DNA of 64,000 nt from an uncultured delta proteobacterium (GTDB taxonomy: Bacteria > Desulfobacterota > Binatia > UBA9968), in NCBI GenBank assembly GCA_963745835.1, contig CAVUZH010000024.1, positions 288,001 through 352,000 of the forward strand, read 5' to 3'. Made by a program: the position numbers and the translations under genes. Positions 56,145 through 57,418 of this stretch are shown here, one piece after another; position 1 is the first letter of the stretch, and every line of letters starts with the position of its first letter. The notes under the pieces were generated by a model. That model saw nothing but the letters and a program-made list of their open reading frames with translations. It was not told where the DNA came from and did no database searches.

Positions 56145-56877
56145 CTAACGTCGTCGCCGCACTCGGACCGGCCTTCTGACGGACATCGCCCACTTCGGGT
56201 ACAACAGGCCGGCGGCGGAATCATGCGTCGGGTTGCGCGTGCGCAGCGGCGCCCGGAACGAGGCCTCCGGGACCGCGCCATGCGAGGCAGCGCATGTAAA
56301 GTCGCCGCGGCTGAACTCCAGTGTAAGGATGGGGACGTGGGATCCACCCTGGCGGCATGTACGGCCGCATCGGCGGCGCCATCATTGGCATGGGAACCTC
56401 GGCGAATTCATCGCCAGCATCCGGTGCATAGACCTGTTGTGCCGCCTGGGCTACAGGCTGCAACTGTTGGATCGCTCCTGGCAGCGCTTGTTGGTACGCC
56501 TGTACCGCCGGCGCAAGTTGCTGCATGACGCCCGGCATAGCGCTTTGAAAAGCCTGCACCGCGGGCGTGAATTGTCTGACGACTCCGGGAAGTGCCCGCT
56601 GCGCCGCTTGAGCTATCGGGGCAAAGCGTCGAAGCGCGCCCGCTGCTCCTCGAATGATCCCCGGCAATGCTCTCGCCGCATGGGGAAGGACTTTCGCGGC
56701 AATAGCCGGCAACACCTTGGCCGCGAGCGGCGCCAAAAACGGCAACCCAACGGGATTGCCAAAACCGTCGTAGACGACTTCACCCATCGGCTCTGGATAC
56801 TCTCCGTATTGAGAACCATAGATTTGAGCATCCGGAACTTCATGCAGGTATCCCGTTAACGTGTCTTGGACGAGCAT
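56145..56877 (-). CDS. Protein with a YGE/MGE leader, an amphipathic Ala/Gln helix and an Arg-rich tail; frameshift near 56220
   Basis: GFGNPVG-LPFLAPLAAKVLPAIAAKVLP; 11-residue LPG/AP helical repeats; shifted-frame end RRPVRVRRRR*. Confidence 0.65.
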
Positions 56878-56879
56878 TT

Positions 56880-57418
56880 CATTCCCTCCTTTTCAATTTC
56901 ACAAACCCGTTTCCAAAGCGCCGGCGGCGCCCATCCTATCCGTCGTTCACAGTCGCGTCCACGGCGATCCATCGGCCGCGAACATTCACCTCTGGATAAA
57001 TGTGCGAGTATGCATGCGGCTTGTTCGGGCGAAAACCGGCCAACACCAGCCTCACCGGATGACCGGTAGACATGAGCATCGCGCCCAAAAGAATGGTCAT
57101 ATCGTCGCAATCGCCCGCCCGAAGCTCGAGCATGCGACGCGCTGAGTGCAGCAACTCCACACGGAAGATATCCCTCGTGTAGCGAATATTGCGGCGCACC
57201 CAATAGAACAAAGCGCAGACCTCGCCAAACCGGTTTTTTGGACGGATGCCGTACTCGCGAAAGATTTGAATCGCCTTTTGTCGAACGTAAAAATCTTTGG
57301 CTCCCGCGAGAATCATCCGCGCAATAATTTGCGCCGTCACCAGGGTGCCCCCGGTTCCATTGGGAACGCGATGAATGCGAATGCGAGGCGTCACGAAACG
57401 GCTGCATAATTGTATCAT
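56880..57418 (-). CDS. Transglutaminase-like cysteine protease; frameshift near the C-terminus
   Basis: IRYTRD, GDCDD (Cys), SHIYPE (His) and WIAVDAT (Asp) triad; continues IGWAPP in another frame. Confidence 0.85.

Follow-up and report, generated by a model that had tools for sequence, protein, structure and literature searches.

What does a small transglutaminase-core enzyme do when its gene stands directly upstream of a gene for a protein built from an acidic leader, an invariant Gly-ending motif, and a cationic body? This question was raised by a locus in the window, by which we mean the whole stretch of 64,000 nucleotides (nt) analyzed here (contig CAVUZH010000024.1, positions 288,001 to 352,000 of the forward strand), derived from an uncultured delta proteobacterium of the Binatia (lineage UBA9968). 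The original prediction, made from the letters of this stretch, had read the two neighboring genes as a maturation protease and a substrate carrying a membrane-lytic-like helix, which together would serve membrane penetration for cargo delivery. Our answer, drawn from sequence comparison and held tentatively, is that the enzyme may be a dedicated peptidase and that the family of the neighboring 218-amino-acid (aa) protein may be its precursors. The observations behind the original prediction were largely right and the family proved to be real, while its interpretation was partly supported.

One genome per species was scanned, which yielded 15 loci; these were compared by tblastn and clustering and, together with the window, make 16 sources. 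The enzyme open reading frame (ORF) of the window matched Transglut_core (PF01841) in Pfam over residues 61–155, with an E-value of 1.3e-12 and 48.4 bits against a cut-off of 23. At E ≤ 0.1, the only other Pfam matches were DUF553 and CEP76, and no other peptidase family appeared. GDCDD occupies residues 102–106 of this ORF, and the His of SHIY and the Asp of VDAT are residues 139 and 154. C104, H139, and D154 were invariant in 30 of 30 aligned relatives and aligned with the G-x-C, H, and D of the solved structure 3isr, confirming the Cys-His-Asp transglutaminase-fold protein that had been recognized by eye. The enzyme family comprised 1147 proteins, the best 120 of which all carried PF01841 and were all at least 76% identical. 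In intact loci, the enzyme is 175–191 aa long, and across phyla it shared 67–94% identity with the enzyme of the intact locus L004. For comparison, the precursors were 33–56% identical to the L004 precursor, and relatives of a 340-aa protein of the same operon were 33–65% identical to the window copy. No membrane segment was seen in the enzyme by eye. As a separate observation, 59 of the 181 columns of the 181-aa enzyme were invariant, a conservation far above that of every other operon protein and unusual for a small accessory enzyme.

The 218-aa protein matched no Pfam family and had 260 homologues at E ≤ 0.001, none of which bore an informative name; family counts below refer to the best 120 listed of these 260, and alignment counts to 30 sequences. 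DGxGNPVG was found in 118/120 homologues, three of which carried two copies. The residue following the motif was Leu in 66, Phe in 54, and Ile in one of the 121 motif copies, so that the Gly-[Leu/Phe] junction, which the original prediction had proposed to look for in homologues, is indeed conserved. An MLVQDTLTG-type leader stood at the start of 114/120 homologues, and the GWI[RP] core of a C-terminal domain was present in 116/120. In the alignment, Y36, D37, G38, G40, N41, P42, V43, and G44 were invariant (30/30), as were P175, G177, W178, W200, and G205; written for the family, the motif reads YDG(F/L)GNPVG. The net charge up to the motif was negative in 120/120 (median −8), and the net charge after the motif was positive in 120/120 (median +22). 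In the window protein itself, residues 1–44 are acidic and Tyr-rich with a net charge of −7, and they end in the motif (residues 36–44), after which a hydrophobic segment follows (residues 45–65), as had been described. The motif coding pattern occurred only once in the 7.28-Mb genome, which fits one enzyme with one substrate; the enzyme was likewise single-copy there. A query of the ESM Atlas with the precursor returned nothing above 0.84, and no N-terminal signal peptide was seen by eye in the precursors.

The part of the protein behind the motif differed from the long amphipathic Ala/Gln helix that had been claimed. This region really consists of three 18-residue repeats (residues 95–148, 9–11 of 18 residues identical between units) with a Pro every 7–10 residues and helical moments of 0.29–0.39. 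The whole protein contains 31 Pro among its 218 residues, spaced one per 7–10 residues across residues 42–141, and a single long helix is therefore unlikely. Higher helical moments, 0.46–0.68, were found in windows starting at residues 58–100. The repeat region varied in length and was missing in some homologues, such as the 169-aa protein of L004; at the DNA level, neither the precursor gene nor the gene for a Tyr-rich protein of the operon showed tandem repeats. In segment 45–65, the highest 18-residue Kyte-Doolittle mean was 1.71 and the helical moment was 0.24–0.26, while the 18 residues after the motif had a median hydrophobicity of 0.40 and a median helical moment of 0.33 across the 120 homologues and exceeded their own shuffles (z > 2) in 76/120. 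The repeats are followed by an acidic patch, a Pro/Met-rich stretch, and the C-terminal domain (residues 175–212). As for the predicted Arg-rich C-terminus, an Arg-cluster end (at least four Arg in the last ten residues) was present in frame in 117/120 homologues, whereas in the window it lies out of frame with the 218-aa ORF.

The modular grammar of this family is the most informative result of the analysis. Paralogues within one locus shared 48–61% identity up to the motif versus 20–29% after it (6 pairs), and 44–100% identity over the first 16 residues (8 pairs); the two further pairs involve L010c, in which the leader is present and the motif is missing. Bodies of paralogues can be wholly different, as in L010a, L010b, and L011a. 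Leader and motif thus form a portable module that is joined to unrelated bodies. Moreover, a whole unit was repeated within single proteins. In this unit, an acidic Tyr-rich stretch leads into GNPVG and ~20 hydrophobic residues, after which come a Pro-rich stretch and finally an Arg run; there were three copies in a 445-aa protein of L015, two each in L005b and L014a, and degenerate copies in the 392-aa P0391. To judge from their sequences, such proteins look like polyproteins to be cut at several sites. A leader that is conserved while the bodies vary, the pairing of acid and cation, and repeated junctions would together be expected of precursors for a dedicated protease. In addition, we observed a third precursor-like gene in L010 (L010:11432-11932) that encodes the leader, an extended (Gly-Tyr)n run, and a tail rich in Arg, His, and Trp and lacks GNPVG.

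The two genes belong to an operon of ~11 kb that showed a single gene order across the loci. From the upstream end, this order comprises a sigma-54 activator, a ~73-aa protein, the transglutaminase-core enzyme, one to three precursor genes, a ~110-aa protein, a Tyr/Gly/Glu-rich acidic protein, a ~320-aa protein, a ~470-aa protein in which two paralogous domains are fused, a separate third paralogue of ~263 aa, a ~163-aa protein, a ~180-aa protein with HxxxGRAxD...HxH, and a ~450-aa protein. The enzyme gene lay directly upstream of a precursor gene in 15/15 loci, with an overlap of 4 or 22 nt between its stop and the following start in seven of them; the shifted frame of the window enzyme runs to 56856, likewise 22 nt inside the next gene. 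The loci came from Verrucomicrobia, Acidobacteria, Alpha- and Deltaproteobacteria, and one Polyangiaceae metagenome-assembled genome (n = 15). The distribution was patchy: the enzyme was found in 1/30 genomes of relatives, where a larger, different protein gave one further weak match, and in 0/7 genomes of the same genus. We take the operon to be horizontally scattered. All core genes except those for the activator and the enzyme are without a family in Pfam, NCBIfam, PHROGs, and PADLOC; for the ten intact operon proteins of L004, PHROGs, NCBIfam, and PADLOC gave 0/10, and Pfam added nothing. The system as a whole matched nothing in the libraries or the literature searched, where no paper on the operon or the motif was found (supplementary files lay outside that coverage). 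Its gene order has nonetheless been kept over at least three phyla.

If the enzyme is a peptidase, the following sequence of events can be proposed. The small ~73-aa protein would possibly help the enzyme recognize leader and motif, and the enzyme, acting as a cysteine endopeptidase, would cut at or beside Gly44. The cut would part the neutralizing acidic pro-region from the cationic, presumably membrane-seeking body. The released body might then permeabilize the producer's membrane, letting out wall hydrolases that carry no signal peptide together with the jelly-roll proteins of the operon; alternatively, it might attack another cell. By analogy, this would follow the same logic as leader-peptidase/precursor systems and viral maturation. 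Were the enzyme such a leader peptidase, its long, modular, polycationic products, which have their acidic neutralizers built in, would also make up a new class.

Several points weigh against this reading. The protease-precursor pair of the original prediction is favored by the junction, the charge split, the modules, the triad, and the adjacency of the genes; on the other hand, the transglutaminase core also covers true cross-linkers and other hydrolases, and neither sequence nor fold can tell a peptidase from a cross-linker. Even the nearest solved relative, 3isr, was matched with an E-value of only 0.037. A Val-Gly↓Leu/Phe site (↓ marks the cut) fits no known leader-peptidase consensus, and an invariant nine-residue motif could equally be a docking motif. 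The leader carries a nearly invariant Gln4 and the 340-aa protein an invariant Lys254, a pair that would suit a transglutaminase reaction. Bodies of 110–230 residues are far longer than known leader-dependent peptides, and the hydrophobic segment is Pro-rich and only modestly amphipathic, with moments of 0.24–0.26 in the window and a median of 0.33 in the family, 44/120 homologues not exceeding their shuffles at z > 2. In Pfam, the small upstream protein showed no PqqD/RRE signature. Finally, a peptidase and its precursors leave the constant co-encoding of four or five jelly-roll proteins unexplained. A complex prediction of the enzyme with precursor residues 1–80, run twice and without controls, gave an interface score (ipSAE) of 0.00, which speaks neither for nor against binding; in this model, the precursor had a predicted local distance difference test score (pLDDT) below 50 around the motif, as for a predicted disordered region.

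The state of the window's own copy also counts against a working peptidase here. Compared by tblastn with the intact proteins of L004, six window genes showed frame changes, namely those for the enzyme (near 56950), the fused paralogues (three changes), the third paralogue, and the ~163-, ~180-, and ~450-aa proteins. Three more genes were affected, in the precursor tail, in the N-terminus of the Tyr-rich protein, and in the ~110-aa gene, giving a total of about a dozen frame breaks in ~8.5 kb (49215-57418). At least one frameshift is needed to join the Arg tail to the 218-aa ORF, the stop of which lies at 56221. The activator and the 340-aa gene were intact, and ORFs of at least 180 aa span most of the first 30 kb (1–30 kb) of the window. 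Contigs of close relatives (90–99% alike) from four soil or rhizosphere runs showed single-base differences at several of the break sites, including an extra base after 56944 (three runs) and one base fewer at 55996 (three runs) and at 55818 (two runs). Relative to the window, a contig of one soil run lacked four single bases at 56197-56229, and a low-depth contig of another run matched the window at 56225 and 56229. The break sites are not long homopolymers. The frame breaks could be local consensus error or real decay, and because these two are indistinguishable in the window, the functional argument rests on the intact relatives. With an enzyme that lacks ~22 residues and a substrate that lacks its Arg tail, the operon may be inactive in this genome, and the dozen frame breaks may mean that no product is made there. 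The positions of all features are collected in Table 1.

Table 1. Features of the operon and its surroundings, listed from the upstream end (positions are those of the window).
Feature	Positions	Strand	Size or content	Basis or remark
Sigma-54 enhancer-binding activator	58145-59794	minus	549 aa	Sigma54_activat E 4.2e-64, HTH_8 E 4.4e-13; directly upstream of the operon
-24/-12-type element	57683-57698	minus	CGGCAC-N5-TTGCT	Pattern match, 280 nt upstream of the enzyme start
Small conserved protein	57419-57736	minus	ORF of 105 aa; core of ~73 aa at 57425-57634	Stop adjoins the enzyme start
Transglutaminase-core Cys-His-Asp protein	56936-57418	minus	160 aa	ORF cut short at the C-terminus
Conserved last ~22 enzyme residues	56886-56951	minus	~22 residues	Other frame; tblastn with the L004 enzyme passes from frame -1 to frame -3
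Modular precursor-like protein	56221-56877	minus	218 aa	ORF
Conserved N-terminal leader	56830-56877	minus	16 residues, MLVQDTLTGYLHEVPD	Leader type in 114/120 homologues
Invariant motif	56746-56772	minus	YDGFGNPVG, residues 36-44	Alignment; proposed processing or recognition site after Gly44
Hydrophobic Ala/Leu/Pro segment	56683-56745	minus	Residues 45-65, two Lys	Hydropathy
Arg-bearing amphipathic stretch and three 18-residue Ala/Gln/Pro repeats	56434-56682	minus	Residues 66-94 and 95-148	
Conserved C-terminal domain	56242-56355	minus	PPGWIPRP ... GLVPGAAA	Alignment
Arg-rich tail	56145-56189	minus	14 codons and stop	Three-frame translation; out of frame with the 218-aa ORF
Conserved ~110-aa protein	55757-56038	minus	~110 aa	tblastn; family members in 13 loci besides the window
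Tyr/Gly/Glu-rich acidic repeat protein with conserved C-terminal domain	55020-55685	minus		N-terminus in other frame (to 55719)
Conserved beta-sandwich protein	53942-54964	minus	340 aa	Intact here
Three tandem jelly-roll paralogues	51687-53810	minus	Two fused and one in intact loci	At least four frame changes here
~163-aa, ~180-aa (HxxxGRAxD ... HxH), and ~450-aa proteins	49215-51650	minus	~163, ~180, and ~450 aa	One frame change each

Besides the window, 12 loci encode the small protein that precedes the enzyme; it had no Pfam family above threshold, no PqqD match, and no PDB sequence match. The ~110-aa protein gave nothing credible in PDB sequence searches. The Tyr-rich protein (L004:10948-11748) consists of Tyr/Gly/Glu/Pro repeats and a Cys-containing C-terminal domain that ends in ETFKPLW. 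These repeats are similar to the acidic spacers found in the precursors, and BLAST groups both families; it could be a neutralizing partner of the polycations. Toward the downstream end, the ~163-, ~180-, and ~450-aa proteins had no Pfam family. In the ~180-aa protein (window 50702-51209; L004:15621-16163), which had no Pfam or PDB match, HxxxGRAxD ... HRDHIHV recalls zinc D-Ala-D-Ala-type (LAS) peptidases by eye only. No signal peptides were seen by eye on any operon protein, and Sec or Tat export was set aside on this ground.

Could the motif remain uncut? In the strongest alternative, the 218-aa protein would be a scaffold or internal polycation of a jelly-roll particle or fiber, in which leader and motif dock, the Arg body binds nucleic acid or the Tyr-rich protein, and the enzyme cross-links (Gln-Lys isopeptide) or aids assembly. 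We consider this unlikely but deserving of weight. In its favor stand the 340-aa beta-sandwich protein and the three jelly-roll paralogues that are always co-encoded. The 340-aa protein had only 215 relatives among 1.84 billion representatives. Its model (pLDDT 73.8; predicted template-modeling score, pTM, 0.68) had no Foldseek match in the PDB at E ≤ 0.001, and the best PDB sequence match, at E 0.38, was not credible. In structural comparison, it reached a best Z of 6.1, within a list where viral capsid proteins of the jelly-roll type (Orf virus D13-type scaffold, HHIV-2, PRD1 P3, PBCV-1, and SPV1) stand beside carbohydrate-binding modules and other sandwiches. The ESM Atlas returned unnamed clusters only, apart from the PM2-type P2_N/P2_C coat family at a score of 0.75, merely a lead. 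The three paralogues (L004:12824-15036) have Arg-rich N- and C-termini and share a conserved GLG..NG.RPF loop. The model of a paralogue (pLDDT 66.3) is an eight-stranded jelly roll, with a nucleoplasmin-like domain as the best match (Z 8.9, root-mean-square deviation 2.9, 93 aligned residues), followed by peptidylglycine hydroxylase (Z 8.4) and the capsid proteins of SPV1 and satellite panicum mosaic virus (Z 8.3). A peptidylglycine-hydroxylase-like role was rejected because no His or Met is conserved among the paralogues. Foldseek against BFVD gave nothing at E ≤ 0.001 for this model, and the top rows (E 2e-3 to 4e-2) were mostly capsid proteins of CRESS-DNA viruses at TM-scores of 0.2–0.3.

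These models thus resemble viral single-jelly-roll capsids and nucleoplasmin at Z 6.1–8.9, and further points fit a scaffold as well: the Arg-rich termini of the paralogues, the strongly acidic Tyr-rich protein beside a +22 polycation, the pair of Gln4 and Lys254, and an enzyme identity across phyla that is a constraint typical of a multi-partner protein. Nevertheless, no Lys and no other Gln is conserved in the precursors, the Gln-rich repeats are dispensable, and whole-module repeats in polyproteins are more in keeping with cut sites than with docking. The structural matches are also generic, since according to the search tool's own note Z < 8 is common for unrelated folds; the modeled jelly-roll folds are compatible with a particle, for which the evidence is weak. 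No packaging ATPase was seen among the conserved genes and no portal, PHROGs gave 0/10, and relatives of the 340-aa protein were absent from IMG/VR viral contigs and from 50,697 phage records (INPHARED).

Protease and particle may also be combined. The operon could be a domesticated, tailless, jelly-roll virus-like or bacteriocin-like lytic particle under a sigma-54 switch, in which a transglutaminase-like protease matures the precursors into pore-forming polycations for particle exit or target entry; we regard this fuller picture as improbable. If true, it would provide a bacterial counterpart of the lytic peptides of adenovirus (pVI), nodavirus (gamma), and reovirus (mu1N), and if the jelly-roll proteins do form a particle, it would be a new bacterial particle with protease-armed, membrane-active components. 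The transglutaminase-like enzyme family is not known to take part in virus maturation. A homologue of the sigma-54 activator lay upstream in 12/15 loci; L008, L010, and L014 had no adjacent match, and the L008 locus begins just before the enzyme gene. The -24/-12 pattern had five matches in the window versus 5.46 expected, which is not above chance. A match within 900 nt upstream was found in 5/15 loci, and in L004, L006, and L009, the sole plus-strand match lay 276–293 nt upstream. Since the element of the window lies inside the 105-aa ORF, the true start of the small protein is probably further downstream (conserved part from ~57634). The sampled-word share in three RNA runs was 0.05–0.08, a figure that says nothing on expression.

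We give still less credence to a tripartite sorting signal of the sortase/exosortase type, made up of motif, hydrophobic stretch, and poly-Arg, with the enzyme as a transpeptidase that moves one half onto a protein or wall peptide. Papain-like Cys enzymes can perform transpeptidation, and the order of motif, ~20 hydrophobic residues, and Arg cluster was seen in L005b, L008a, L014a, L015, and P0113. Peptidoglycan-directed genes also lie nearby, with weak OmpA-like matches in the window and, downstream in L004, a 476-aa protein (L004:18245-19675) with Peptidase_M74 (E 8.4e-9) and a weak GH19 match but no signal peptide; because of this protein, wall-lytic functions can be said to be sometimes attached to the operon. 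By contrast, the lack of a signal peptide on the precursors and of a membrane segment in the enzyme (both by eye) argues against sorting, and in most members, including the window, the final Arg run comes only 100–170 residues after the hydrophobic stretch. We know of no sorting enzyme with a transglutaminase-type fold. Downstream of the operon in the window, we observed a pair of M35 aspzincin-like genes (E 3.4e-8 and 0.0063) together with two proteins that have weak OmpA-like matches (45688-47531, 47676-48677, and 42257-42874). Only a 333-aa OmpA-like gene among them recurs (five sources including the window); the others, including the metallopeptidase genes, were not among the families common to at least 4 of the 16 sources, and the cargo delivery of the original prediction is thus unsupported.

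Least credible, by a little, is autocatalytic cleavage at the invariant Asn-Pro of GNPVG, with another task for the enzyme: reovirus mu1 (Asn42↓Pro43) and the coat proteins of nodaviruses and tetraviruses do release lytic peptides autocatalytically, Asn41 and Pro42 do not vary among the 30 aligned sequences, cleavage there would yield, as in these viruses, one acidic fragment and one that is hydrophobic and cationic, and jelly-roll-like proteins are co-encoded, but the viral cleavage needs an assembled coat fold round the Asn, whereas the motif here is predicted to be disordered (pLDDT < 50), and the strict adjacency and extreme conservation of the enzyme would be left unexplained.

With the peptidase reading tentatively preferred, the locus can be compared with known systems. 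In the brevinin and temporin precursors of frogs, an acidic propiece neutralizes a cationic FLPxxAxxAAKxLP-type peptide until a protease removes it. The brevinin likeness noted in the original prediction turned out to be weak: the L004 homologue hit PF08018 with an E-value of 0.015, its 15.8 bits falling short of the 21.2-bit cut-off, while the window protein had no PF08018 hit, no signal peptide, and no Lys-Arg processing site. It is most simply explained as convergence of composition. In nodaviruses (gamma) and reoviruses (mu1N), a peptide is freed autocatalytically within the coat protein of a non-enveloped jelly-roll particle. Likewise, a hydrophobic or amphipathic piece would here come from a precursor with an invariant Asn before the junction, although the protein that holds the motif is a separate one, probably disordered, with a dedicated enzyme next to it.

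Adenovirus was the model of the original prediction. Its gene set combines a cysteine protease and the pVI precursor with Arg-rich internal proteins and jelly-roll proteins, and similarly a cysteine enzyme and the precursor of a would-be amphipathic, membrane-active segment are co-encoded here with Arg-rich and jelly-roll proteins. However, the model fits in neither the enzyme family nor the site consensus: the enzyme has a transglutaminase core and is not adenain, which cuts at (M/I/L)XGG↓X or (M/I/L)XGX↓G, and NPVG↓L lies outside this consensus. Furthermore, neither a double-jelly-roll hexon nor a packaging ATPase was identified, the viral collections searched held no relatives, and the locus is chromosomal, beside a host-type sigma-54 activator.

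In bacteriocins with a double-glycine leader, the C39 peptidase domain, a papain-like Cys-His-Asp enzyme, takes off a conserved N-terminal leader ending in Gly and frees a cationic, membrane-active product. Cleavage at the double glycine is described in PMC10885120. The enzyme here likewise has a papain-like Cys-His-Asp triad, and it would act on a conserved N-terminal leader ending in Gly. The junction here, however, is Val-Gly and not GG, GA, or GS, the leader has 44 residues with an acidic Tyr-rich insert, and Pfam found no C39 domain or ABC transporter in the operon.

By analogy, a lasso-type leader peptidase is a better mechanistic precedent than adenovirus and the closest one that we can offer. 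Lasso-specific models exist in Pfam and NCBIfam, and the enzyme matched none of them (Pfam at E ≤ 0.1; NCBIfam gave nothing for the intact L004 enzyme). The operon proteins scanned with Pfam included no Asn-synthetase-like cyclase, the small protein had no PqqD-type match, and jelly-roll proteins are co-encoded here. As described in PMC10885120, the leader peptidases of lasso peptides are cysteine proteases built on a transglutaminase-like domain. They depend on a small protein that binds the leader and is either fused or encoded separately, and the leaders on which they act have an invariant Thr at position −2. Position −2 is Val43 here (30/30), and the bodies comprise 110–230 residues compared with ~20. 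Because the lasso-specific models, the cyclase, the residue at position −2, and the body length all fail to match, the relation is one of working like a lasso system and not of being one. The likeness lies in the arrangement: lasso B, or the split B1 RRE and B2 (MEROPS C96), pairs a small transglutaminase-like cysteine protease and a small partner with leader-bearing, variable precursors, and here a ~73-aa protein, a ~181-aa enzyme, and one to three tandem precursor genes stand in the same order. If the enzyme is indeed a leader peptidase, it would represent a second use of the transglutaminase fold in precursor maturation, beside that in lasso peptides.

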